A stretch of 64,000 nt of DNA, from positions 2,166,515 through 2,230,514 of the forward strand of contig CBDDCL010000015.1 of assembly GCA_965226245.1 (NCBI GenBank), in the 5' to 3' direction. Both the position numbers and the translations under genes were made by a program. The notes beneath the pieces are model-generated. The model was not told where the DNA came from, searched no databases, and saw nothing but the letters and a program-made list of their open reading frames with translations. Source of the stretch: Bryobacterales bacterium (GTDB lineage: Bacteria > Acidobacteriota > Terriglobia > Bryobacterales > UBA6623). The first letter of the stretch is position 1; each line of letters opens with the position of its first letter. Below are positions 24,056 through 64,000 of the stretch, one piece after another.

Positions 24056-24534
24056 ATGAAGGTGCGGACTCGTGAGAAGCGCCAGCGGCTCCGTAGCGAA
24101 TTTTTCCGCGGCAGGAAGCTGCGGATTGGCTACCGCGGGCAATTGCTGGTCGCTAAGGTGGTCGACTCTAGCGACCACGGGCTGGGAGTGGAGATGTCCG
24201 CACCACTGGAGATCGACTCGTTCGTTTCGTTCGTTGGTATTGGACTCCGAGGCCGCGCACAAGTTATGCACTGCCGACCCAGCGACGACGGCGTGTTCCA
24301 TGCTGGACTCAAGATTGAAGCAGTCAGTTTCGGCAAACTCGATGTCTCCAGCCGGGCACTCCCCAGCGAAACCGTCAAGGCATATAACCCGCGTGATCGA
24401 TTACTCAATGCAGGTGCGATTGGGGAACCAAAAGGCCGCGGTACAGATGATCTTGTCGAAGGAGTTGAAGAAATGCATTGCGACGGCACCCAAGACTCAA
24501 GTGAGGAGAGATCTCGGATCAACGTTTCGGAGAG
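24056..24534 (+). pseudogene. 5' part of an interrupted gene: PilZ domain
   Basis: RxxxR (RQRLR) and DxSxxG (DSSDHG) motifs, RBS GGAGAGG. Cut at the TSD and in frame with 34824-36812. Confidence 0.75.
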
Positions 24535-25561
24535 ATGGGGTATTTAGTTGACTCCAGTAGCCACTACATCTTGGGGGTGGGGGTGCCGGCCCTGGTGGCC
24601 TCGACCATTGTCTTATAGGGAGCAGGGTCGGCGGCGACCGCCTGCTGGAGGAGGCGATAGAAAAGTTTGCCGCGCGACCGTGAGGTCCGCCGGTTGAAGC
24701 GGAACGTGAACTCGTCCAGGTAGTAGTCCAAATACTCGTGACTGACAGCCCCCTGGTGGGTCCCCAACAGCCAGCGCTTTAGCAGAGAGGCGACACGATG
24801 GACTCTCGGCAGCAGCTTACTCGCCGATTGCCGCTTCCCGCGCAGCACGGTGACTTCATGGCGGTATCCTTTGTTCTCCAATCCCGCATAGCCTTCCCAG
24901 CCGTCGGTGTGCACGAGGCTGCCAGGTTGGATAGCTTCTTCGACAAAGGCTTCCAAGCTCGCCGCTGAGGCATCCGCGATCCGACGGAGCCGGATGCGAC
25001 CCATACCGCGCCCATCCTCCTCGGCAGCAACCGCAACTAACGCTTTGCCAACCATTTCGCGACCTCGGACGCCCTCTTCGACTCCGCCCACATACGTTTC
25101 GTCCACCTCCACCCGGCCGACCAGCCGATTGCGACCGGGGCGCACCATGGCGCGGCGGAACTTGTGCAGCCAGGTCCAGGCGGTTACATAGCTACCCAAA
25201 CCCAAGACCCGCTGCAACTCCAGCGCGCTGGCCCCGCCTTTTTGCGTTGTCACCCACCAAGCCGCCCGGAACCACAACGTCAAGGGCTTGCGGGTGTCCT
25301 GGAAAATCGTGCCCGCCGTCACCGAGGCCTGGTAACCGCAGTCGGCGCAGAGCAGCAGATTGCGTTTGCTGGCCCATGAGGACTGGATCCCACAGCGCGG
25401 GCACACGAACCCCTCCGGCCAGCGCAGCTTCAGCAGGTACTCCCGGCACGCCTCCTCGGTCGAGAATCGAGCTTCCAACTCGACGAGGTTTCGGGGGTAG
25501 TCCTCCTTCATGCCCCCAACCACAACATATTGTGGCTACTGGAGTCAACTAAATACCCCAT
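24535..25561 (-). mobile_element. IS1595-family IS, copy 1 (transposase 24564-25523)
   Basis: 30-bp TIR ATGGGGTATTTAGTTGACTCCAGTAGCCAC. Zn ribbon (CPRC/CADC) and DDE motifs (VEVDETY, HTDG, YLDEF.FRFNRR). Confidence 0.95.
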
Positions 25562-25563
25562 TC

Positions 25564-25638
25564 GCCAAGATCACGGGCGTGTCCCGTCCTACCCGCTACA
25601 GCTCCATGAGCACCCGAGGTCTCAGGACGAACCCTTAG
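25564..25638 (+). pseudogene. C-terminal HTH relic of a serine resolvase/invertase
   Basis: AKITGVSRPTRYSSMSTRGLRTNP* resembles resolvase HTH tails. Truncated by IS copy 1. Confidence 0.5.
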
Positions 25639-25842
25639 CGTGTATTTCAACACGAATCTGGTCGGTACCCCTCGTGCGGGGCGTCCCTGATGCTGTCGAT
25701 GAGTCGTTGGGTTTGGTTCATGGTGTCTCCTTCGATGGTTTGCTGTGTTTTCCCTTCACCAGGGGAAGAGGGAGAACCACAAACCAGAGTAGGAGACTAG
25801 AGCGAGCGCGGGGCGACGGGCAAGGACCAGATAAGACAACGC

Positions 25843-26460
25843 GAGTGACAGACGCTGAAAGCGAGCGGAGCGTTCTGGCGCGAGAGTTGCCCTGGGACGC
25901 CGCCAACGGCGGGCCGCTGTGAGCGGAAAGGCACCACAAGCAAACACTCAATCGAAGCGGGAAGAAAAGAACAAGCGCGGCGAAGCGAACGGCTCCGCCG
26001 CGCCCTGGCGCGGTTGCCCGCTAGGACTCGTCCACCTAAACCTCCGGGAGTTCTGCTTCTGCCGGAAGCTGGAAGAGGCGCGTGTGGGCGAAGTCGGCCA
26101 CTTTCGCAAGCACCAACAAGTCGTTGCGCCCGAAGCTCTGCGTACTCTTCCATTGATCGCCTTCTTTGTAGAGGCGGGAAAAGGTGACATTGTGCCTCGG
26201 CTGTTCGTCGGTTCCATTGCGCCAAATCGTAGCCTTGACGCGACCGATCCGGACTTCTGTGATGGGTTTCTGATTAGCCATAATGTTTTTCTCCTAGAGA
26301 GTCAAAGGGTTTGTGAGCGTTTTTCGCTCACCCGCGAATGGCGGAAAACGCCCAAACCCTGACGCGGTAGGAAAGCGCCGTCCGCGCCGGTGACGGGCAG
26401 AGCCGACAAAAGCTAAGGTTGAGTGACAGACGCCGAAGGCGAGCTAAAGCGTTCTGGCGC
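25843..26460. repeat. ~40-bp direct repeats flanking the small ssb-like gene
   Basis: 25843-25881 and 26421-26460 (GAGTGACAGACGC.GAA.GCGAGC...AGCGTTCTGGCGC). Confidence 0.8.
26036..26281 (-). CDS. Small plasmid-type protein, possibly single-stranded DNA binding
   Basis: Strong RBS (AGGAGA). Beta-rich sequence EVRIGRVKATIW..HNVTFSRLYK..QWKSTQSFGRNDL. Function is inferred. Confidence 0.65.
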   Translation of the reverse strand: MANQKPITEVRIGRVKATIWRNGTDEQPRHNVTFSRLYKEGDQWKSTQSFGRNDLLVLAKVADFAHTRLFQLPAEAELPEV

Positions 26461-26697
26461 TGGCCTTGCGTCGGCCCAAACCGGGACCGGCGACGGGAAG
26501 CACGGGAACATGGCGCAACCTAGACCCGTCCGCCGCACGGCGCGAAAGCGATTTGGCGCAACACCGGAAGGCATGTCACCATTGAGCCTCGCCCGGCAAT
26601 GCTCGATCAATGGAGCAAGGGGTAACGGGTGGGAAAGTGGACCGCCCGAATCGCGGCGCTTGCAGCGCGTCGGGGATGATCCAGGGAAACCGCGATT

Positions 26698-28197
26698 TCA
26701 GCGGCGGTTCCATAAGCCGATCCCTCGCCGCCGCGCTTGTTCTTCCAGTTGAATAAACTCCGTCCGCTTGGAGAAGGGAAAGCGCCGGTAAGCATGAGCG
26801 TAGCCGTCGCGGATCAGCCGGGCGTTGAAGTTGTCTCCGTCCAGCAGGACGTAGCGAAGCCAGCGCCCGTAGCGGTCCACGGTATCTCCGGTGCGGTCCT
26901 TTTGGAGTAGCACTGTCTTACCTTCGAGCGCCGCCTTGGTGAAGGCGCTTGCCTCCCGTCCGAAATACTGCACCGCTTCGGTGGGGTGCTTCGTCTCCGG
27001 GGTGTCCACGCCGATGAGCCGGACGGTGTAATTCTTCCCTTGATGGCGCACCTGGATGGTATCGCCGTCAATGGGGTATTTAGTTGACTCCAGTAGCCAC
27101 AATATGTTGTGGTTGGGGGCATGAAGGAGGACTACCCCCGAAACCTCGTCGAGTTGGAAGCTCGATTCTCGACCGAGGAGGCGTGCCGGGAGTACCTGCT
27201 GAAGCTGCGCTGGCCGGAGGGGTTCGTGTGCCCGCGCTGTGGGATCCAGTCCTCATGGGCCAGCAAACGCAATCTGCTGCTCTGCGCCGACTGCGGTTAC
27301 CAGGCCTCGGTGACGGCGGGCACGATTTTCCAGGACACCCGCAAGCCCTTGACGTTGTGGTTCCGGGCGGCTTGGTGGGTGACAACGCAAAAAGGCGGGG
27401 CCAGCGCGCTGGAGTTGCAGCGGGTCTTGGGTTTGGGTAGCTATGTAACCGCCTGGACCTGGCTGCACAAGTTCCGCCGCGCCATGGTGCGCCCCGGTCG
27501 CAATCGGCTGGTCGGCCGGGTGGAGGTGGACGAAACGTATGTGGGCGGAGTCGAAGAGGGCGTCCGAGGTCGCGAAATGGTTGGCAAAGCGTTAGTTGCG
27601 GTTGCTGCCGAGGAGGATGGGCGCGGTATGGGTCGCATCCGGCTCCGTCGGATCGCGGATGCCTCAGCGGCGAGCTTGGAAGCCTTTGTCGAAGAAGCTA
27701 TCCAACCTGGCAGCCTCGTGCACACCGACGGCTGGGAAGGCTATGCGGGATTGGAGAACAAAGGATACCGCCATGAAGTCACCGTGCTGCGCGGGAAGCG
27801 GCAATCGGCGAGTAAGCTGCTGCCGAGAGTCCATCGTGTCGCCTCTCTGCTAAAGCGCTGGCTGTTGGGGACCCACCAGGGGGCTGTCAGTCACGAGTAT
27901 TTGGACTACTACCTGGACGAGTTCACGTTCCGCTTCAACCGGCGGACCTCACGGTCGCGCGGCAAACTTTGCTATCGCCTCCTCCAGCAGGCGGTCGCCG
28001 CCGACCCTGCTCCCTATAAGACAATGGTCGAGGCCCCCAGGGCCGGCACCCCCACCCCCAAGATGTAGTGGCTACTGGAGTCAACTAAATACCCTATCGC
28101 CGTCAATCACCCACTCGACGCGGGCGGAAATCGGATCAAGTTGGGCGCTGGTGATAAGGCCCATGAAGCCACAAACAAAGATGGCTAGTCCGGTCAT
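26698..28197 (-). pseudogene. Thermonuclease (SNase-like) with signal peptide, interrupted by IS1595 copy 2
   Basis: Rejoined motifs VIDGDT, VRLIGVDTPE, DRYGR.L.YV and GLW. ATG at 28197. Confidence 0.9.
27071..28097 (+). mobile_element. IS1595-family IS, copy 2 (transposase 27109-28068)
   Basis: 8-bp TSD CGCCGTCA at 27063-27070 and 28098-28105. Two amino-acid changes and one TIR mismatch versus the other copies. Confidence 0.95.
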
Positions 28198-28223
28198 TTT
28201 GGCCCTGAGTGGTAGGGGTAGGG

Positions 28224-29183
28224 CTAGGCGTCTTCGACCTTGAGTTTTTGAATGTCCCATTGGTTTGTCCTCGCTTCGTAGCCTTTGACGAAAACTGCTT
28301 CTTCGGCGAATCGCCGTCCCTCGTGGCGCGTCATGTGAATCACCATGGCGATGCCGTCCACCACGCCTCTACAGGTTACTTCCCACGGTAGCTCCCCGCC
28401 GCCTTGCATGGCGCAACTGGCGATCCGGGATAGGGCGCTCGTTGCGTTGTTGGCGTGTACGGTCGTCAGTGATCCGCCGTGGCCGGTGTTGAGTGCTTGT
28501 AGGAGGTCCGCCGCCTCTCCGCCGCGAACCTCGCCCACGACGATGTGATCCGGGCGGTGACGTAGCGCGTGGCGGACTAGATCGCGGATCGTGACCGCGC
28601 CTTCTTGCAAACCGCGAGCCTCGAAGCGGACGCAATTCGACCGCTCGATGCGAAGCTCCAAGGTGTCCTCGATGGCAACTATTCGCTCATCATCGGGGAG
28701 AAGTTCGATAAGGGCATTGAGCAACGTGGTCTTGCCTGATCCGGTTCCGCCTGAAACTAGGATGTTGCGCCGGGACCGCAACACCCGCTCGGCTTCGGCC
28801 CGCACGTTTTCAGGGAGTGCGCCTTGCTTCACGAGGTCCGCCGCCGAGAACGCCCGCTTACCAAAGCGCCGCACGGTGATAGCGACTTGAGGACTGGCGG
28901 GCGGAACGCAGATGGCAACCCGCGATCCGTCATCGAGCCGGGCATCGACAATGGGAGAGGTCGCCGGGTCCAGTCCCAAAGGACGGGCGATATGGATAGC
29001 GGCCCGTTCCAGCGCCGCTTCGTCCAGGTCCGGCGCGGCGTGTGGGGCCAGCCGTCCGGCCCGCTCGATCCACACATTAGCGGGACCGTTAATCATGATC
29101 TCGCTCACTTCGGGATCTTCAAGGACGCTCTCTAAGCCCGGTAGAAAGGGTTTTAGGTGTTCCAGTCCGCTCGCGGCGCTCAT
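28224..29183 (-). CDS. virB11: VirB11/CpaF-family secretion ATPase
   Basis: GGTGSGKTT, IEDTLEL, RPDHIVVGEVRG and NTGHGGSLTTVHAN motifs. ATGA overlap with the virD4-like gene. Confidence 0.88.
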   Translation of the reverse strand: MSAASGLEHLKPFLPGLESVLEDPEVSEIMINGPANVWIERAGRLAPHAAPDLDEAALERAAIHIARPLGLDPATSPIVDARLDDGSRVAICVPPASPQVAITVRRFGKRAFSAADLVKQGALPENVRAEAERVLRSRRNILVSGGTGSGKTTLLNALIELLPDDERIVAIEDTLELRIERSNCVRFEARGLQEGAVTIRDLVRHALRHRPDHIVVGEVRGGEAADLLQALNTGHGGSLTTVHANNATSALSRIASCAMQGGGELPWEVTCRGVVDGIAMVIHMTRHEGRRFAEEAVFVKGYEARTNQWDIQKLKVEDA

Positions 29184-31852
29184 ATTTGGCCCGCCTCTTT
29201 CGCTCTCCAATAGGAGTGTTCGGCTGGTAGATAGTGCGGCTTGAGGTAGACGCGGCGCGGCTCAAGCGACTGCGCCCCGTCATAGGGCAAACAGATTGCT
29301 TGACAGTTCGAGAGTAAGGCGAAGTCTCGCGGGTGAAACACGGCCTCGCGCTGCTCCCGGAATGATTTGGTCGCGCCCATGCTCCCGCCTCCGCCTCCGG
29401 CCCGTCCTGAGAGCGGGGAGACTTCCGAGCGTTTGGAGGTCTCGCTGATGGTGTAAGATTCCTTGATCTTCGCCACCTGGCCGCACAACTCCGACGCGAT
29501 CTTGGCGGATGCGTCATCACTCAGCGATAAGAAAATGCGAGTACGGAGCGTCTGCAACAGCGACCGCCACGCTTCCGAGCTTCCCAAGACGGCCCGCAAC
29601 GAGGAAATAGATTGCGTGGCGACAATCGGGATGCAGCGGCATTGCCGGGTCAGCGCAAAGGATTTTTCATCGCCTGATGGGTCTTCCTCGCCCACTGAAG
29701 CGAAGGCTTGATATTCGTCACAGATAAAGACGGCGGGCCGAAAGTAGCTGCCCGGATTCGCCTTCATCTGAGCCGGTCGCATGAGAAGCGCTTGTAACCA
29801 AGCGTTCTTGAGCATCACGCCCACGGCGCGGGATAGCGCCGGGTTGATACCAGCGGGCATATTCAAGGCCAGCACCTTGCCCTGCTCGATCAACTGATAG
29901 ATCGGCGGTAGCTGGCGTGTGATCGGGGCTTCCTCTTGGGTAGGGGGTTGGTTGCTCTCGGTTGAGGGGTCGGGTGTCTGAGGGGTCTTGTCGTCCGGCT
30001 CCGTCTCCGTTATGATCCACGCCGCCTCCTTCGCCTTGACTGGTTTCGGTTCCGCCTCCTGGGGCGGGTTGTCGTCCGGCTCCGCCGCCGCCTTCGCCTG
30101 CGGCTCCGGCTGTGCCGCTTTGACCGGCTCCGGTTCCGCCTCCGGCTCCGGCTGTGCCGCTTTGACCGGCTCCGGTTCCGCCGCCTTCACCGTCTCCGGC
30201 TTTCTCGCGGTCTTTGGCTTCTTCCGCGCCTTTGGCTCGCCTCCCCATGTGTATCTGATCTCCGCCGCCTGGGGGGTCTTGTCGTCCGGCTCCGCTGCCT
30301 CCGCCTCCGCTTCCGGCTTCGGTTCCGCCTTCGGCTCCGCGTTGTCCGCCGCCGCGTCCTTCTTCGCTTTGAGGCGCTTGATTTGGGCTTGCAAGATGAT
30401 GGCTTGAGGATCGTCGGTGATGTACGGCGCGGGGAGACAAAACACCCTCGCCACGTCCGGCATATCGAACATGGAAAGGAACACCGAAACGCCCTCGACA
30501 ATCGAGGACTTGATCTTGTTGTCTAGGTTTTGCCAGTCGTGGACAAACCAGCGCTTGATGGCCTCGACGCGCTCTCTGGTATCTTTGCCGGGTCCAGATT
30601 CCCAGACGATTTCATGGGTGATTTTGAGTTCTTCGAGCTTCGCTTTGAGCGGGCGGGTGTGGACGGCTTGGTGCTGTTGGCCTCCCGGTGTACGGGTCCA
30701 GTTCCATTGTTCAAGATGTGTGAGTTGGGGTACCAGTGCGTCCGCCTCGACGAAAATGGTCCCTGTGTTGAGGTCGTCGCTCAGCTTCTCCGCCGCCTCG
30801 ATCTTGGACGCGAATAGCTCCGGCTCGATGGCACAACGGTAGACCTGTTGCAACGTCACCCATCGGTCCGGGAATACGCGGTGAAGCTCGATGATCCAGC
30901 GGACCAGATTGGTATAGGCTTGCTGCCAGAAGGGTTCCTTGCCCTTGCCGAACAACTGATTGAGCAAGCTCGAAACGGTGTAGGCAAGCGAGTACGAATC
31001 GAGCCACCAAGCCGAGAGCGGATTCCATTGAGAACGGGAGTCCATGCCAATCTCGATGTAGTCTTCTCCACGGCCCGCCTCGACGAGGATTTGGCGGATG
31101 TCGTGACAGAAATCTCCCTTGACTTCGAGCACCAGCGCCGCCGCCCGCATGTGCGGATTATGCGCTTGCCAGCCGAGAAGCTGGCGGGCAAACGGATTCA
31201 TGCAAGCCGAGGTTTTCCCTGATCCCACGGCTCCGAAGATCGCCACGCCGGTATACAGTCCGCGCTCCGGGATGGTGAGCCATGAGGGACTGAAAATCTC
31301 CCGCGCCTCGATGGGGTGATGGACCTCCCCGATAACGATGGCCGGAGCCTGTTGGTCCGCTGAAAGCGGCCACGGTGGGAGCTTGGCGAAGGGCGCGAAA
31401 TCGCGCCGCCGTCCTTCTAGCCAGACCTTCCAAATGGTGACGGAAATAACTCCGCACAGCATCACGACAACGAAGGGCGAAAGGTAGTACCAGACCAGCA
31501 TGGCCGTGAAAACATCGGGCGTGTGATATTGCACCAAAGCAAGGATCGGGTGCTCATCAAACGACGGGAAGGGACGCCGTACAAAGCTCCACACGGCATA
31601 CCACAGACCGCCGAAAAAAAAGAGCAGCAGGGGCGGAAGCCCGACAACGAATTGTACGACGCGAAACACCGTCCAGCCGAACAACATGAGACCTTGAAAG
31701 ACGCGCCATCCGGCCCAACCCAACAGCACGAAACCTTGCACGACCAGCCAGCCGAGGACGGCGAAAACCCGGATCGGGTTTTTCCAGTTCATCGGGCCAG
31801 CGGGCCGGTGCCAAAGCTCCTGAAGATTAGGGCCGATTTCGCGCCACTTCAT
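29180..31852 (-). CDS. virD4: VirD4/TraD-like type IV coupling protein with internal Pro/Ala/Glu/Lys-rich insert
   Basis: N-terminal TM segments, Walker A GAVGSGKT, Walker B ICDEYQ and ATQS motif. Confidence 0.85.
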   Translation of the reverse strand: MKWREIGPNLQELWHRPAGPMNWKNPIRVFAVLGWLVVQGFVLLGWAGWRVFQGLMLFGWTVFRVVQFVVGLPPLLLFFFGGLWYAVWSFVRRPFPSFDEHPILALVQYHTPDVFTAMLVWYYLSPFVVVMLCGVISVTIWKVWLEGRRRDFAPFAKLPPWPLSADQQAPAIVIGEVHHPIEAREIFSPSWLTIPERGLYTGVAIFGAVGSGKTSACMNPFARQLLGWQAHNPHMRAAALVLEVKGDFCHDIRQILVEAGRGEDYIEIGMDSRSQWNPLSAWWLDSYSLAYTVSSLLNQLFGKGKEPFWQQAYTNLVRWIIELHRVFPDRWVTLQQVYRCAIEPELFASKIEAAEKLSDDLNTGTIFVEADALVPQLTHLEQWNWTRTPGGQQHQAVHTRPLKAKLEELKITHEIVWESGPGKDTRERVEAIKRWFVHDWQNLDNKIKSSIVEGVSVFLSMFDMPDVARVFCLPAPYITDDPQAIILQAQIKRLKAKKDAAADNAEPKAEPKPEAEAEAAEPDDKTPQAAEIRYTWGGEPKARKKPKTARKPETVKAAEPEPVKAAQPEPEAEPEPVKAAQPEPQAKAAAEPDDNPPQEAEPKPVKAKEAAWIITETEPDDKTPQTPDPSTESNQPPTQEEAPITRQLPPIYQLIEQGKVLALNMPAGINPALSRAVGVMLKNAWLQALLMRPAQMKANPGSYFRPAVFICDEYQAFASVGEEDPSGDEKSFALTRQCRCIPIVATQSISSLRAVLGSSEAWRSLLQTLRTRIFLSLSDDASAKIASELCGQVAKIKESYTISETSKRSEVSPLSGRAGGGGGSMGATKSFREQREAVFHPRDFALLSNCQAICLPYDGAQSLEPRRVYLKPHYLPAEHSYWRAKEAGQI

Positions 31853-31922
31853 AGGTCCGTCTCCGTGCTTTCAGCGCCGCTCCTGGGGGGTTGTTCTGAG
31901 CCTTCCCGCAGGGATAAATGAG

Positions 31923-32021
31923 GACGAGAGCGACCCCCTGAGGCCGGAGTAGAGACACGGTACAGCGTGTCTCTACGAAAGGCCGCAGGTCCCCCCGCTT
32001 TTTGGGGGGGTCGCTCTCGTC
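31923..32021. other. Nested inverted repeats (oriT-like candidate)
   Basis: 16-bp outer IR (31923-31938/32006-32021) encloses an 11-bp hairpin (31949-31959/31966-31976). Confidence 0.5.
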
Positions 32022-32210
32022 TTTCTCACTCGCCCGCGTCCGAAGCGATCCGGGCCGCTTCAAAGCGGCTAACCACGGCGGAATGAGGCACATAGAGGAA
32101 AGCGGCTTCGCCGCATTTCTCGATTTAAGCGTGCGACACCCCCCCCCTCTGAGCGTGTCACAATCTGCATGGGGCGTTGTACCATAAAAAAATGGCCTAT
32201 TTCCCGTCTC

Positions 32211-33164
32211 TCAGCCGCTCTCATCTCGCTCCGCAAACCGCACGGCCCGCCATGTCGAATAGTCGTCAATCGAGACTGCTCCGGTAGCTCCGTTAGCTTC
32301 GGGTTCGGGGGGCATTCTCATGAGTGCTGCCGCCCGTTTCATGGCTAACGGTTCTCCGCCGTAAGGGATGAAAAACTCCGTGTTGTTTTGGATTATCGCG
32401 TCTTGGATGGCCTTGATTTCCTGGTTCACCGTCAGTCCTTTATCGGGTGTCCCTGGCTCCGCCGCCGCCCATGTTTGAAGCACTCGCGCCGTCCGGTCCA
32501 CGGTGGCATTTTCAACCGCAATTCCGATTACCCGAACCTGCCGCCCCTTCTTGCGAAGCGCATCCCAAAGCGGCCCATGCACGGCTCCCCACGAGTGGAG
32601 TTCACTATCCGTCTGGTTGCCCGGATCGACGTAGACAAAGGTGATGGTTTCAGGGTCCACGGCAAGAGGCAGTTTAAGGGCAAAGTAGCGCTTTTGGTTA
32701 GCCGCCACACCGTAGTAAATCCGGCGCGGAAGCAAGCGGAGCGGCAAGCCGAGCTTCTCAAAAAACTCGACCTTCTCCGGCTCGGCGGGGAGCCAATTCA
32801 TAGCTGGATGTTGCAGCACAAAATCCAGCGATAAAAGCCGCCGTATGAGAACAGGCTTTTTGGCCTTTCGCCGGTGACGGATGTTCTCGACGCCTAGCGC
32901 CCGGTAGATGGCGTTGCTCGATATGCGGCACGGTCTAGCGCCCCCGGAGAACATGAAGTTTTCGTTTTCGACCGCCGCTCGGCGCTCTATCAATGTCTCG
33001 ACGAATCGTTGCGCCCGTTGACGACCCGTACTGAAATAATCACAGAACTGCCCCCGCGTGAATACGCCGCTGTGAAGACACACCAGCGCGATCCATTCCG
33101 CGTCCGGGCCGGTCCATCCGAGCGGTTCCAGCTTGCAATCTCTTCCCCGTAAATGCTCGATCAT
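32211..33164 (-). CDS. Uncharacterised T4SS-associated protein (wHTH-like N-terminus; possible relaxase-like)
   Basis: Long ORF translationally coupled to the virB8-like gene (ATGA). No canonical HUH relaxase motif is visible. Confidence 0.7.
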   Translation of the reverse strand: MIEHLRGRDCKLEPLGWTGPDAEWIALVCLHSGVFTRGQFCDYFSTGRQRAQRFVETLIERRAAVENENFMFSGGARPCRISSNAIYRALGVENIRHRRKAKKPVLIRRLLSLDFVLQHPAMNWLPAEPEKVEFFEKLGLPLRLLPRRIYYGVAANQKRYFALKLPLAVDPETITFVYVDPGNQTDSELHSWGAVHGPLWDALRKKGRQVRVIGIAVENATVDRTARVLQTWAAAEPGTPDKGLTVNQEIKAIQDAIIQNNTEFFIPYGGEPLAMKRAAALMRMPPEPEANGATGAVSIDDYSTWRAVRFAERDESG

Positions 33165-33787
33165 AATTGATCTCCGGTGACGGTGGCCCGGTCGCCTTGC
33201 AAGTAGGTGATGACGATTCCCATGGGGTTGAACACGATCAACTCCGTGGGGATTTGGTGGAGGAACTGGAATTGAAGCGAGAGCGTCCAGCGTTCCCGGC
33301 CCACTTCGTTTTCCATCTCCATTCGCACAATGTCAAAATCGGCGGTGGCGCTGTGCGGCTGCTGAGGGTTGGGTTGAATCCTCAAAATGACGCGGGCGAC
33401 TTGCAATTCTCCCCGCGCCACGCCCGCCGCGAGAAGGGCGACATTTTGGCTCTCGGTGCGAAACGAGGCATTGGCGAGTGGCGTGCTGAGGAAGCGCAAG
33501 CTGCGGGACCAGTTCTGTGCGACCGTGGCCCGCCGCCGCGAGTAGAAGTCATAGATAAAGCGGTTGAGGAAATACTTGGTGGTGGGGTCCAGCGGGTCGG
33601 CCTGGGCCTCCATCACTTTGTAGGCGACGGCCTCGGCCCGCCCGACTTCATCAACCCTGACGACGATGGGACGAGGCGGCTCAACCGAAACAATGCGGAA
33701 GACGACGAGGATGAGCAAAAGCACTGCGATAGCCAGCCCAACAGATATCACCCGTAGATGACGGTTGGTGTGGATGGTTTCGCCCCA
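33161..33787 (-). pseudogene. VirB8/TrbF-like protein, 5'-truncated by IS copy 3
   Basis: Single TM followed by PIVVRVDEVGRAEAV and YFLNRFI..FYS. The frame is open to the IS boundary and hits a stop inside the TIR. Confidence 0.7.
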
Positions 33788-34814
33788 ATGGGGTATTTAG
33801 TTGACTCCAGTAGCCACAATATGTTGTGGTTGGGGGCATGAAGGAGGACTACCCCCGAAACCTCGTCGAGTTGGAAGCTCGATTCTCGACCGAGGAGGCG
33901 TGCCGGGAGTACCTGCTGAAGCTGCGCTGGCCGGAGGGGTTCGTGTGCCCGCGCTGTGGGATCCAGTCCTCATGGGCCAGCAAACGCAATCTGCTGCTCT
34001 GCGCCGACTGCGGTTACCAGGCCTCGGTGACGGCGGGCACGATTTTCCAGGACACCCGCAAGCCCTTGACGTTGTGGTTCCGGGCGGCTTGGTGGGTGAC
34101 AACGCAAAAAGGCGGGGCCAGCGCGCTGGAGTTGCAGCGGGTCTTGGGTTTGGGTAGCTATGTAACCGCCTGGACCTGGCTGCACAAGTTCCGCCGCGCC
34201 ATGGTGCGCCCCGGTCGCAATCGGCTGGTCGGCCGGGTGGAGGTGGACGAAACGTATGTGGGCGGAGTCGAAGAGGGCGTCCGAGGTCGCGAAATGGTTG
34301 GCAAAGCGTTAGTTGCGGTTGCTGCCGAGGAGGATGGGCGCGGTATGGGTCGCATCCGGCTCCGTCGGATCGCGGATGCCTCAGCGGCGAGCTTGGAAGC
34401 CTTTGTCGAAGAAGCTATCCAACCTGGCAGCCTCGTGCACACCGACGGCTGGGAAGGCTATGCGGGATTGGAGAACAAAGGATACCGCCATGAAGTCACC
34501 GTGCTGCGCGGGAAGCGGCAATCGGCGAGTAAGCTGCTGCCGAGAGTCCATCGTGTCGCCTCTCTGCTAAAGCGCTGGCTGTTGGGGACCCACCAGGGGG
34601 CTGTCAGTCACGAGTATTTGGACTACTACCTGGACGAGTTCACGTTCCGCTTCAACCGGCGGACCTCACGGTCGCGCGGCAAACTTTTCTATCGCCTCCT
34701 CCAGCAGGCGGTCGCCGCCGACCCTGCTCCCTATAAGACAATGGTCGAGGCCACCAGGGCCGGCACCCCCACCCCCAAGATGTAGTGGCTACTGGAGTCA
34801 ACTAAATACCCCAT
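33788..34814 (+). mobile_element. IS1595-family IS, copy 3 (transposase 33826-34785)
   Basis: Same TIRs and same protein as copy 1, opposite orientation. Confidence 0.95.
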
Positions 34815-34823
34815 TCGGAGAGT

Positions 34824-36812
34824 ATGTCTCAACTTGCTCCCGTGAGTACACAAGAAGCAACGACTACGGACAGTGCCGGACAAGCAGGCTCGCCGGATAG
34901 GGAAGGGCAAGCTTCAACAACACCTTCTGAGATGGCCCAAACCATCCCTCAAGCCGTGAAGCAAGAACTGCGAGACTCAAAACTCGATGAAATTCTTCAG
35001 CGTTGGACCGAGACCCAGCAGCAAATCGCGGAGTTGAAGGCGAATGTGTCCGAACAACACGCTGAGCTTGCGGCCGCAAAGGAGACGCTGTCGCGGTTGT
35101 GTGCGGAGACTGAAACAGCCCAGCAGTTGCAAGCCAGTAGAGTTGACTCCATACTGGAGCGCCTGGCGGTGCATGAGGCTGAGCTTCCAAAGTTGAACTC
35201 TATCGAGGATCTCTCGGGGAAGAAAAATGGAGTAGTTCAGCGCCTCGACCTGCTATCGAAAGTCTCAGGTTCGGCCTATGAAGTAGAGAAGCATCGTCAG
35301 ACCGCGGAGCCCGTTCCCGATCAGACCGAAGCTCCCCAAACGTCCGCGGAAAAGGGGGCGGCCGAGCTTGCGGCCAGCAGTGGCTCTACTCCGCCAGAAA
35401 GTCCCGCCGGGATCGCAGAAGAGGAACCGGAAGTTGAGCCAGCGGGCGCACCGCCCGCGAGGCAACGGTGGATTTCGAGCCGTGTCTTGAAGCTGGCGGC
35501 CGCCTGCGTGGCCGTTGTCCTGGCCATTGCAGTCGCTTACTGGATCTCCTCCGACGGCTCCTTCCAACAGGCCTCGAAGGTTGCCGCCTCGACGATTGCT
35601 CCAGAGACCCATGTAGCCGTTCCTCTGCGAGGAGTTGTCTTGGACGAAGGCACCGGAGGTCCAATCACGCATGCGACCCTCTATAGCGGCGGCGTGGAAG
35701 TAACAACCAATGCGCGGGGAGAGTTTGAACTACCCTCCGGCGTCCTCCGCGGGTCATTGGGGGTGAAAGCCGCCGGCTACCGGCAACGAACGCTGGAGCG
35801 GCTTGAAGATCCGCTCACGGTCCGCCTGGAGGCGATTCAGGTCAAGGCGATCTACGTCAGCCAATCCCGGATGGCTCACCCGGAGGGGTACCGGGCTATC
35901 CGCGAGCTGCTCGACGAGACGCCATTGAACACCCTGGTTGTTGCCGTCAAGTCGCCCCGCGGAAGGCTCATCCTGCCCGTCGAGTCCCCAGTGGCTGAGC
36001 AGCTTGGCGCTTACCGGCCTGACTGGCCGGGCAGCCTCGCGGAAGAGATTCGGTCTTTGAAAGAACAGGGGGTCTACACGATCGCGTATATCGCGGCGTT
36101 CCGCGACGACCTGGTGGCTCGGGGCAAGCCGGAGCTGGCGCTGAAGAGCCTCAAGACGCACCAGCCCGTTCGGGACGTCTCCGGTCTCGGATGGACCAAT
36201 CCGGCTCTGAAGGCGGTGCGGGATTACAACCTTGCGGTAGCCAAGGCTGCCGCTGAGGCGGGTTTCGATGAGATTCAATTTGACTTCGTTCGCTACCCCG
36301 TGAGCCGCTTGAGTGCGGAAGGTACGGACGCGGCGGAACGTCAGCGCCGCCTGCAGGCTGTGGTTGAATTTCTCCGCGCCGCCAATCGAACGCTGGCCCC
36401 CTACAACGTTTATGTGAGCGCCACCATGTTTGGTTCGTCGTGCGACATGCAGCGGGTCAGTCTTGTCGGCCAGAAGCTCGAGGAATTCGCCGCCGCGGTC
36501 GATTACGTCTGCCCGATGCTCTATCCCTCCGCGTTCGCTTCGAGCGCGAGTTTCCCAGACCCGTTGAAGCGTTCCTACGAGCTGGTTGAGCAGAACCTCA
36601 GGACGGCGGCCGGGCGTTTAGGGGGGCAGAGCTACAAACTCCGCCCCTGGCTGCAGAACTTTGCACCGGCGGGATCTTCCGTGCGTGCGATCGACGCAGA
36701 GACCATCGCCTCGCAGATCCGGGCGGCTGTGGACTCGCGCTCCAGCGGTTGGATGCTGTGGGACCGCACGAGCCGCTATCCCAACACGCGCGAGGCGCTG
36801 TCGATCCCGTAA
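34824..36812 (+). CDS. 3' part of the interrupted gene: coiled coil, TM helix, carboxypeptidase-regulatory-like domain, DUF4015-type putative glycoside hydrolase
   Basis: KAIYVS, GVYTIAYIAAFRD, GFDEIQFDFVRYP, DYVCPMLYPS, LRPWLQNF and GWMLWD motifs. In frame with the PilZ part across the TSD. Confidence 0.82.
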   Translation: MSQLAPVSTQEATTTDSAGQAGSPDREGQASTTPSEMAQTIPQAVKQELRDSKLDEILQRWTETQQQIAELKANVSEQHAELAAAKETLSRLCAETETAQQLQASRVDSILERLAVHEAELPKLNSIEDLSGKKNGVVQRLDLLSKVSGSAYEVEKHRQTAEPVPDQTEAPQTSAEKGAAELAASSGSTPPESPAGIAEEEPEVEPAGAPPARQRWISSRVLKLAAACVAVVLAIAVAYWISSDGSFQQASKVAASTIAPETHVAVPLRGVVLDEGTGGPITHATLYSGGVEVTTNARGEFELPSGVLRGSLGVKAAGYRQRTLERLEDPLTVRLEAIQVKAIYVSQSRMAHPEGYRAIRELLDETPLNTLVVAVKSPRGRLILPVESPVAEQLGAYRPDWPGSLAEEIRSLKEQGVYTIAYIAAFRDDLVARGKPELALKSLKTHQPVRDVSGLGWTNPALKAVRDYNLAVAKAAAEAGFDEIQFDFVRYPVSRLSAEGTDAAERQRRLQAVVEFLRAANRTLAPYNVYVSATMFGSSCDMQRVSLVGQKLEEFAAAVDYVCPMLYPSAFASSASFPDPLKRSYELVEQNLRTAAGRLGGQSYKLRPWLQNFAPAGSSVRAIDAETIASQIRAAVDSRSSGWMLWDRTSRYPNTREALSIP

Positions 36813-62556: not shown

Positions 62557-62970
62557 GCTCACAGATTACTGTTGATTATCCCGTATTTAGTTGACTCCGT
62601 AGTCAGAAGTTCGTGATGCTGCTGAGCCGGTCGAGGACGAATCGCCCTCCGTGTGTCCCCAACAGCCAGCGTGGCCCGAGACGGTCAGAAGTTCGTGATT
62701 GCTGAGCCGGTCGAGGACGAATCGCCCTCCGTGATTCCAGTGGCCGCAAACTGGTACGAACGCTTTGCCAACCAGCCCTCTTCGACTTCCGCGACCGCGA
62801 GCAGGAGGCGGTTAAGTACCCAAACCCAAGACCCGCTGCAACTCCAGCGCGCTGGCCCCGCCTTTTTGCGTTGTCACCCACCAAGCCGCCCGGAACCACA
62901 ACGTCAAGGGCTTGCGGCCTTGAAACGAACCCTATAGCGCTCATCTTCAGATTACTGTTGATTAATCCCG
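62557..62970. other. Scrambled mosaic of IS1595 fragments, duplicated target flank and a protein C-terminal relic
   Basis: IS pieces in collinear order (62583-62602, 62657-62671, 62759-62792, 62807-62917). CAGATTACTGTTGATTA(A)TCCCG occurs twice. Confidence 0.7.
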
Positions 62971-63997
62971 ATGGGGTATTTAGTTGACTCCAGTAGCCAC
63001 TACATCTTGGGGGTGGGGGTGCCGGCCCTGGTGGCCTCGACCATTGTCTTATAGGGAGCAGGGTCGGCGGCGACCGCCTGCTGGAGGAGGCGATAGAAAA
63101 GTTTGCCGCGCGACCGTGAGGTCCGCCGGTTGAAGCGGAACGTGAACTCGTCCAGGTAGTAGTCCAAATACTCGTGACTGACAGCCCCCTGGTGGGTCCC
63201 CAACAGCCAGCGCTTTAGCAGAGAGGCGACACGATGGACTCTCGGCAGCAGCTTACTCGCCGATTGCCGCTTCCCGCGCAGCACGGTGACTTCATGGCGG
63301 TATCCTTTGTTCTCCAATCCCGCATAGCCTTCCCAGCCGTCGGTGTGCACGAGGCTGCCAGGTTGGATAGCTTCTTCGACAAAGGCTTCCAAGCTCGCCG
63401 CTGAGGCATCCGCGATCCGACGGAGCCGGATGCGACCCATACCGCGCCCATCCTCCTCGGCAGCAACCGCAACTAACGCTTTGCCAACCATTTCGCGACC
63501 TCGGACGCCCTCTTCGACTCCGCCCACATACGTTTCGTCCACCTCCACCCGGCCGACCAGCCGATTGCGACCGGGGCGCACCATGGCGCGGCGGAACTTG
63601 TGCAGCCAGGTCCAGGCGGTTACATAGCTACCCAAACCCAAGACCCGCTGCAACTCCAGCGCGCTGGCCCCGCCTTTTTGCGTTGTCACCCACCAAGCCG
63701 CCCGGAACCACAACGTCAAGGGCTTGCGGGTGTCCTGGAAAATCGTGCCCGCCGTCACCGAGGCCTGGTAACCGCAGTCGGCGCAGAGCAGCAGATTGCG
63801 TTTGCTGGCCCATGAGGACTGGATCCCACAGCGCGGGCACACGAACCCCTCCGGCCAGCGCAGCTTCAGCAGGTACTCCCGGCACGCCTCCTCGGTCGAG
63901 AATCGAGCTTCCAACTCGACGAGGTTTCGGGGGTAGTCCTCCTTCATGCCCCCAACCACAACATATTGTGGCTACTGGAGTCAACTAAATACCCCAT
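62971..63997 (-). mobile_element. IS1595-family IS, copy 4 (transposase 63000-63959)
   Basis: Same TIRs and protein as copy 1. Left flank is TAATCCCG and the right flank begins TAA at the window edge, consistent with an 8-bp TSD. Confidence 0.95.
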
Positions 63998-64000
63998 TAA

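Follow-up and report, generated by a model that had tools for sequence, protein, structure and literature searches.

Introduction

Relaxases of the MOBC class combine a winged helix-turn-helix (wHTH) with a restriction-endonuclease-like domain, lack an HUH motif, have origin repeats that are distant from the nick, and are encoded beside VirD4 (PMC12857230, PMC5357655). Genes for relaxosome accessory proteins usually adjoin the origin of transfer (oriT), and most of the known ones encode small ribbon-helix-helix (RHH) proteins (PMC12857230). The present analysis concerns P0001, a gene for a protein of 317 aa in DNA of a Bryobacterales bacterium (GCA_965226245.1, contig CBDDCL010000015.1). The stretch analysed, called the window below, comprises 64,000 nt, and all coordinates given without a contig or locus name are positions in it. 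P0001 probably initiates the conjugative transfer of DNA from an origin of a new kind, and we infer that it cuts the DNA itself. The reading preferred here, to which we give an even chance of being correct, is that P0001 is the origin-specific initiator, or non-HUH relaxase, of an undescribed type of transfer origin in elements of Acidobacteriota.

In function and layout, MOBC is the nearest known system to P0001, but membership of P0001 in this class is unsupported. The MOBC proteins (TraX of pAD1 and MobC of CloDF13; PF13814, Replic_Relax) are similar to P0001 in that they are about 300 aa long, contain an N-terminal wHTH and an alpha/beta domain with conserved acidic residues, have no HUH motif, are encoded next to VirD4, and are associated with several short origin repeats away from the presumed cut site. 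They differ in the HE...PD...E-x-D motifs of Replic_Relax, which are absent in P0001 and in place of which Y87, D114, E128, K131, D180, and H196 are found. Besides, P0001 showed neither a match to PF13814 nor a profile-profile similarity to it (see below), and its nuclease fold is only hinted at. The accessory proteins TraJ of RP4, TrwA of R388, TraM of F, and PcfF of pCF10 are similar to P0001 in that their genes abut the origin and the coupling-protein gene and in the predicted sequence-specific binding of origin repeats (PMC12857230). They are mostly small RHH proteins, whereas P0001 has a wHTH and an enzyme-like second domain and persists in elements without a known relaxase.

Relaxase typing into MOB classes is the basis for classifying plasmids and integrative elements and for predicting their mobility. 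A known gap in this typing concerns elements in which a type IV secretion system (T4SS) is present but no relaxase can be recognised. Acidobacteriota rank with the most abundant bacteria in soil.

Results and Discussion

A Conserved DNA Site Follows P0001

The open reading frame (ORF) of 317 aa that a preliminary description had placed at 32211–33164 was found to be present on the minus strand, and its translation contains the six motifs quoted there (LVCLHSGVFTRGQF, ENIRHRR, RRLLSLDFVL, EPEKVEFF, RYFALKLP, and FVYVDPG). An inverted-repeat region and virD4 had been named as neighbours, and 3′ of the gene, on the same strand, we indeed found a non-coding spacer of 358 nt containing a perfect repeat of 16 bp, followed by virD4, virB11, and the remains of an SNase-like gene. 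The gene and its site comprise the following features:

32211–33164, minus strand: P0001, 317 aa, ATG start, member of an unannotated family, with a winged helix, an alpha/beta domain, and a helical tail
31853–32210, minus strand: conserved non-coding region of 358 nt, candidate origin of transfer, with TGNNACA-type repeats, nested hairpins, and an invariant box
31923–32021, minus strand: outer inverted repeat GACGAGAGCGACCCCC / GGGGGTCGCTCTCGTC, 16 bp and perfect, enclosing a C7-A-G6 mini-hairpin and the inner hairpin
31950–31975, minus strand: inner hairpin TAGAGACACG..CGTGTCTCTA
31899–31915, minus strand: invariant box ATCCCTGCGGGAAGGCT, 5–8 nt 3′ of the repeat, candidate nick region

The spacer was 358–360 nt long in Bryobacterales and 396–403 nt in Terriglobia, and folding of the window copy as single-stranded DNA gave −44 kcal/mol (z = −6.2). 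In an alignment of 71 distinct homologous sites, 425 of the 426 cells for the six outer pairs of the stem held Watson-Crick pairs, double changes were seen at five of these positions, and the inner core (GAGCGACCCC/GGGGTCGCTC) was constant. The box was present as ATCCCTGCGGGAAGG in 54 of these sites, as the doubly compensated version ATCCTTGCAGGAAGG in 16, and as another variant in one, and the box itself forms a short covarying palindrome (CCCTGCGGG or CCTTGCAGG). It was located on the strand of the gene, about 300 nt past the P0001 homolog, in 74 of 80 loci for which the genetic context was determined by ORF clustering and Pfam scans. Exact copies were found 14 times in the genome from which the window comes (the source genome), nearly all of them on plasmid-like contigs. 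In the 5′ portion of the spacer and in the loop of the hairpin, a short motif was present in 5–12 copies; it differed between elements (TGTCACA, TGCCACA, and TGGAACA in Bryobacterales; CAATTGACA, CAATGCGCA, and CAAATTACA in Terriglobia) and partly tracked residues 44–53 of P0001, where the recognition helix begins.

An oriT classically shows a hairpin with a short conserved sequence behind it. With its covarying stem, invariant core, and invariant box 5–8 nt further 3′, the spacer site looks like an oriT as judged from the alignment. Origins of the IncP/Ti type likewise have an inverted repeat with a strongly conserved short sequence a few bases on, and the part TATCCCTGC of the box resembles TATCCTGC in what we take to be their nick region, YATCCTG|Y, which is cut by HUH relaxases. 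They differ from the P0001 site in that TATCCCTGC has one extra C, the box is a covarying palindrome, and the cognate MOBP relaxase is absent. The P0001 origin resembles classic oriTs in anatomy and differs from them in sequence. An Rfam scan of the region 27–35 kb detected no RNA family in the spacer. Two other explanations of the spacer were rejected, namely a replication origin, since the small plasmids encode RepA_C and carry its iterons at another place, and a leader RNA of virD4, since the site also occurs without virD4.

P0001 and Its Site Occur Together without a T4SS

The same hairpin and box were found beside P0001 homologs of only 32–47% identity in five loci that contained neither a T4SS nor a type IV coupling protein (L090, L091, L093, L094, and L098). 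One of them (L091) is a circular contig of 25.6 kb with ParA, RepA_C and iterons, and a 654-aa fusion of ArdC-N/MPTase and P0001 (10001–11965), on which no T4SS, coupling protein, or known relaxase was found; a fusion of the same kind, 721 aa in size, was present in L090 (L090:3846–6011). In L094, RepA_C was divergent from a P0001 homolog of 37% identity, and in L093 the site was located upstream of a homolog of 32% identity and was inverted. The fifth locus (L098; G099:C1:4020000–4039900) lies in a finished chromosome and contained a tyrosine integrase, the P0001 homolog with hairpin and box, a complete type I restriction-modification system, and an M78-peptidase/HTH pair. From its gene content it is predicted to be an island that carries defence genes and is built like an integrative mobilizable element.

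Since protein and site were linked irrespective of their surroundings, the spacer belongs to P0001 and is no leader or operator of virD4. This linkage in the absence of a T4SS is the strongest evidence that P0001 is an origin-specific initiator: in the manner of a relaxase, P0001 lies in cis with its site, and the two are kept together in mobilizable elements without a T4SS. The same loci bear on the explanation that P0001 is a MarR/ArsR-like transcriptional regulator of transfer genes, with the spacer serving as operator and as promoter or leader of virD4-virB11, which we regard as very unlikely. The spacer is directly upstream of virD4 in the window, but the site also follows the gene where no virD4 or transfer genes lie downstream, and was once found upstream and inverted. 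Such a regulator would agree with the MarR, ArsR, and SmtB repressors being the closest structural matches and with the weak matches of a few family members to MarR or Crp HTH domains of Pfam; a box of 17 nt that is invariant down to 32% protein identity, together with a covarying long hairpin, is atypical of an operator, however.

Fusions of ArdC-N, an MPTase-PolyVal peptidase, and full-length P0001 were found in three independent clusters at 50% identity (P0136, P0145, and P0158). They are encoded on small plasmids without a T4SS, with the hairpin and box about 300 nt downstream. The ArdC-N/MPTase "header" architecture has been predicted for proteins that are transferred with DNA and released by the peptidase (PMC5512222). 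By analogy, the fusion likely marks P0001 for delivery with DNA, which fits a transferred protein better than a repressor. It would also suit an establishment or anti-defence factor that is delivered with the DNA and acts on the incoming strand by recircularisation, priming, or protection. However, the relaxase is the classic protein transferred with DNA, so the fusions fit a relaxase equally well, and the strict pairing with one DNA site and the fixed place beside the coupling protein would be left unexplained; a role of P0001 in establishment is therefore considered improbable, to much the same degree as one in regulation.

P0001 Has a Fixed Place in the Conjugation Module

In the window, P0001 is flanked by the following genes:

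33161–33751, minus strand: virB8-like gene (PF04335, E 1e-12), N-terminally truncated by a copy of IS1595
29180–31852, minus strand: VirD4-type coupling protein of 890 aa with TrwB_AAD_bind and TraG-D_C domains, conserved partner of P0001 (cluster 0)
28224–29210, minus strand: VirB11-type ATPase (T2SSE, E 2e-49; TIGR02788 VirB11)

The start codon of P0001 and the stop codon of virB8 share an ATGA overlap, which agrees with the coupling to virB8 noted previously. The VirD4 homolog is 890 aa in the window compared to about 680–850 aa in relatives.

The neighbourhood analysis that had been proposed as a check showed P0001 to have a fixed place between VirB8 and the spacer with VirD4 in dozens of loci. 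The conserved order, seen in two classes, was ArdC-c12-(c26)-VirB2-VirB3-VirB4-VirB9-VirB10-c3-VirB6-VirB8-P0001-spacer-VirD4-VirB11-SNase, and RepA_C, ParA, or an integrase was often found near this module. Two clusters of small ORFs between P0001 and virD4 were rejected as artefacts of the conserved non-coding region. In Terriglobia elements (L084:9467–11671), ArdC has 734 aa and is enlarged by a block of N-terminal ankyrin repeats, which is unusual for a bacterial anti-restriction protein.

Besides the 7.1-Mb chromosome, the source genome comprises 14 contigs of 24–117 kb (C1–C14). Most of them carry RepA_C and ParA, many copies of insertion sequences, and intact or decayed versions of the conjugation module, which suggests a swarm of plasmids related to one another or plasmid variants left unresolved. 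P0001 homologs, whether complete, partial, or fragmentary, were found on eight of the contigs (C1, C2, C6, C7, C8, C9, C12, and C14), and C9 carries a full conjugation module. The reduced plasmids C8 and C6 have lost ArdC, c12, and the T4SS and have kept P0001, the site, and VirD4; copies of P0001 outnumber those of c12 and MobA by about 3:1. Retention of P0001 by hitch-hiking beside RepA_C was rejected, since RepA_C of the complete plasmid C9 adjoins ArdC and c12, at the far end of the module from P0001, and since C8 and C6 have lost ArdC and c12 and kept P0001.

More than 2,383 P0001 homologs were present in a protein collection clustered at 90% identity, forming 1,700 clusters at 50% identity, and no name or Pfam domain was found among the homologs in this collection. 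Among species-representative genomes, the family was detected in 30 of 301 sampled Acidobacteriota species (about 10%), belonging to Bryobacterales, Terriglobia, and others, often with many copies per genome (31 in one metagenome-assembled genome). This patchy distribution is typical of mobile elements. A tblastn search of PLSDB plasmids gave no match, and P0001 was unmatched in scans with Pfam, NCBIfam, and PHROG, in which 28 diverse members showed only weak wHTH matches (few MarR, Crp HTH). Searching the sequences of PDB entries with a profile yielded nothing but a chance match to pTAC3 (E 0.1). In the libraries and literature searched, neither the family nor its origin has been described. 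Some ORFs of 350–460 aa (G025, G134, G145, G279, and others) matched the family profile at positions 5–240 only; they contain the wHTH and the first part of the second domain with another C-terminus and may be a sister family.

Structure and Conserved Residues of P0001

An AlphaFold2 model of full-length P0001, built with an alignment of 28 sequences (mean pLDDT 89.6), consisted of a winged helix at about residues 19–82, an alpha/beta domain at about residues 100–235, and a helical tail. In a Foldseek search with the whole model, the leading PDB matches were all wHTH proteins of the MarR, ArsR, and CadC kinds (probability up to 0.99, residues ~1–95). Residues 96–317 alone (pLDDT 88) formed a helix, a four-stranded meander, a helix, a strand, a helix, and the helical tail, and a Foldseek search with this part gave no significant match (best E = 0.2 in PDB and 0.016 in BFVD). 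Weak matches recurred to a RecB-family exonuclease (E 0.016), the small subunit of R.BspD6I, Cap4, Can2, a "PD-(D/E)XK nuclease", and DUF2800. The resemblance of the modelled C-terminal domain to PD-(D/E)XK proteins is non-significant and recurrent and gives a hint only.

Among 57 diverse members, the conserved polar residues were Q39, Y87 (98%), R96, R98, R109, D114 (98%), E128, K131, R148, R159, D180, H196, and R309, with Y87 at the junction of the wHTH and alpha/beta domains. Judged from the alignment, this conservation looks more enzyme-like than that of a plain DNA binder.

The absence of an HUH motif reported for P0001 was corroborated: the sequence contains no H-hydrophobic-H motif and matches no relaxase family of Pfam. 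P0001 as an HUH relaxase (MOBF, MOBP, MOBQ, or MOBV) was rejected, there being no match to PF03432, PF08751, PF03389, or PF01076, no HUH motif, and a fold of wHTH plus alpha/beta domain, and with 317 aa, a wHTH, and a second domain it is no RHH accessory protein either. Membership of P0001 in Replic_Relax/MOBC, the link suggested previously, is unsupported, since both the profile and the profile-profile tests failed, and no significant nuclease match was obtained for the C-terminal fold. The broader proposal of a non-canonical relaxase retained its support from the coupling to the site and from the lack of a canonical MOB relaxase in Bryobacterales hosts.

Other Candidate Relaxases and Points against Catalysis by P0001

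Six-frame scans of twelve whole host genomes for seven MOB families of Pfam, including PF13814, showed no Relaxase (PF03432), TrwC, TraI_2, Mob_Pre, or Rep_trans gene linked to the elements. In the source genome and four other Bryobacterales genomes with intact elements, Relaxase, TrwC, MobA_MobL, TraI_2, Mob_Pre, and Rep_trans were absent altogether. The source genome contains one true Replic_Relax gene (C12:634–1323), which is not systematically linked to the elements and is unrelated to P0001.

A separate canonical MOB relaxase in homologous elements, which the preliminary description had named as evidence that would speak against its proposal, was found only in a subset of the Terriglobia elements. 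Seven of these carry a MobA_MobL (MOBQ) relaxase gene in the same orientation, upstream of c12 by about 5 kb and of the P0001 homolog by about 16 kb; its locations are as follows:

L084:6822–7832, L085:6332–7762, and six further Terriglobia loci: MobA_MobL (MOBQ) genes

The MOBQ sequence shows an N-terminal Tyr and an NPHVH motif and matches PF03389 (E = 2e-21). About half of the complete elements in one Terriglobia genome lack MobA, as does the whole of another (G011). No MOBQ-type nick sequence or second box was found near the Terriglobia MobA genes, a result that decides nothing.

A further candidate is c12, an unannotated protein of about 297 aa whose gene directly follows that of ArdC where the T4SS operon begins:

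L010:946–1839 and relatives; in the source genome C9:31484–32374: c12

It had 858 matches, none with a Pfam domain, and a large protein search with c12 gave only close relatives without Pfam annotation. Like P0001, c12 has a wHTH and a C-terminal domain, is of the same size, lacks a Pfam domain, and is conserved in the same elements, being present in intact elements of both clades 9–11 kb upstream of P0001; in small plasmids, P0001 takes the place of c12 directly after ArdC. Unlike P0001, it is missing from reduced plasmids and islands, is unpaired with the hairpin-box site, and contains H-D, PD, and E-V-A-T-E motifs closer to Replic_Relax, and the two proteins show no detectable similarity beyond the wHTH. 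In hhalign comparisons, only wHTH regions were aligned (probabilities: P0001 against Replic_Relax, 0.3%; c12 against Replic_Relax, 0.3%; P0001 against c12, 7%), the c12 alignment (Neff 1.4) having too little diversity for the comparison to be a fair one. From these features, c12 is a candidate for a rival relaxase or for a paralogous partner of P0001.

Several observations weigh against P0001 as the cutting enzyme. Neither its sequence nor its fold gave a significant match to a nuclease or relaxase, and its conserved residues D114, E128, K131, and D180 lack the canonical PD...(D/E)XK spacing. An hmmscan of P0001 and 28 diverse members gave no match to PF13814 at E up to 10, and the comparison of the P0001 alignment with 26 PF13814 proteins gave the probability of 0.3% over 21 aligned columns. 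In c12, the H-D...PD...E-V-A-T-E motifs, identified by eye, have a Replic_Relax-like spacing, and one c12 member showed a weak match to PF13814 (E = 0.0097). In the seven Terriglobia elements, the MOBQ relaxase could be the enzyme acting at the box. The association between repeat motif and wHTH is suggestive at the sequence level, being partial and confounded by shared ancestry. Finally, plasmids are known that have an origin alone, or an origin and an accessory protein, and borrow a relaxase in trans, so that the contexts without a T4SS are no proof of catalysis by P0001.

These points would be accommodated if P0001 were a non-catalytic relaxosome accessory protein comparable to TraM, TrwA, or TraJ, the wHTH of which binds the origin and the C-terminus of which oligomerises or docks VirD4, with c12 or, in the Terriglobia subset, MobA_MobL making the cut. 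This explanation is considered unlikely, but clearly less so than regulation or establishment. Of P0001, nothing but the wHTH was recognised with significance, c12 with its Replic_Relax-like motifs and weak PF13814 match co-occurs in both clades, and no separate origin was found beside the canonical MOBQ gene of some elements; the likeness of the box to what we take to be the region cut by HUH relaxases points the same way. The location of the gene also agrees, as accessory genes are usually placed next to the oriT (PMC12857230). However, P0001 and its site persist without c12, MobA, or any known relaxase, and as an accessory protein for an identical origin could be supplied in trans, this retention is hard to explain. 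MobA, moreover, is missing from about half of the complete elements of the same genome and from all Bryobacterales genomes examined. Near-invariant D114, E128, D180, H196, and Y87 would be unusual for a purely DNA-binding protein, and most known accessory proteins are small RHH proteins, not two-domain proteins of 317 aa (PMC12857230).

Proposed Mechanism

We prefer P0001 as origin-specific initiator because of its fixed position, its linkage to an oriT-like site, the lack of a canonical relaxase in Bryobacterales, and its retention where c12 is lost, and further because of the conservation of acidic, His, Lys, and Tyr residues, the weak recurrent PD-(D/E)XK hints, and the ArdC-N/MPTase fusions. 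In the proposed mechanism, the N-terminal winged helix would recognise the short repeats (of the TGNNACA or CAATNNACA type) and the hairpin in the adjacent region of about 360 bp. The C-terminal alpha/beta domain (D114, E128, K131, D180, and H196, with Y87 at the junction) would cut one strand at or near the box ATCCCTGCGGGAAGG, and the adjacent VirD4 coupling protein would pass the cut DNA to the T4SS. P0001 and its site would form a self-contained MOB module, located beside the coupling protein in conjugative elements and alone in mobilizable ones, and would be used by conjugative and mobilizable plasmids, integrated plasmids, and islands of Acidobacteriota. The most far-reaching form of this proposal, which we hold at slightly less than an even chance, is that the family constitutes a new MOB class with a novel or highly diverged nuclease-like domain centred on Tyr87 and D114/E128/K131/D180/H196, a self-sufficient module with a new origin type that mobilises thousands of plasmids, integrated plasmids, and islands in soil Acidobacteriota to which present tools assign no relaxase.

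The Window Copy Lies in an IS1595 Composite Transposon

Four copies of IS1595 were present in the window, each of about 1,028 bp and with 99.8–100% identity. These and the affected SNase-like gene are located as follows:

33787–34814, plus strand: IS1595 copy (DDE_Tnp_IS1595) that bounds the composite transposon on one side, with 100% identity to that at 24535–25562
24535–25562, minus strand: IS1595 copy, other end of the composite transposon
27069–28094, plus strand: third IS1595 copy, within the cargo, with its own 8-bp duplication CGCCGTCA, interrupting the SNase-like gene after virB11
26698–27102: fragment of the SNase-like gene (cluster 17), 134 aa, split by the third IS1595 copy (gene region 26698–28102)
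62968–63998: fourth IS1595 copy

The two end copies are in inverted orientation, and the same 8 bp, TCGGAGAG, adjoin each of them on the outside; therefore, they delimit a composite transposon of 10.28 kb (24535–34814). Its cargo is virB8′-P0001-spacer-virD4-virB11-SNase′. The N-terminus of virB8 has been cut by IS1595, leaving 196 aa compared to 223–225 aa in relatives, and virB2-virB6, virB9, and virB10 are missing from the module in the window. P0001 is thus an intact gene within a decayed module captured by a chromosomal transposon. Of the previous statement that the gene is embedded in a T4SS, the position relative to virB8 and virD4 holds and is conserved in intact relatives, whereas the window copy itself lies outside any working T4SS. 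Its module would be transferred only with a T4SS acting in trans, for example that of the complete C9 element of the source genome. The composite transposon is apparently inserted in one gene, the halves of which are found at about 24056–24534 and 34823–36812 (DUF4015 glycosyl-hydrolase part).

Implications for Mobility of Acidobacteriota Elements

If P0001 is the missing relaxase of these elements, soil plasmids, integrated plasmids, and defence islands that are now scored as non-mobilizable would become predictable, and the profile of the family together with the hairpin-box motif would provide a direct marker for these transfer origins. It would also add to the non-HUH ways of nicking a strand in conjugation. 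Should P0001 prove to be an accessory protein, a new and testable oriT family is still defined by the conserved origin with its specificity repeats.

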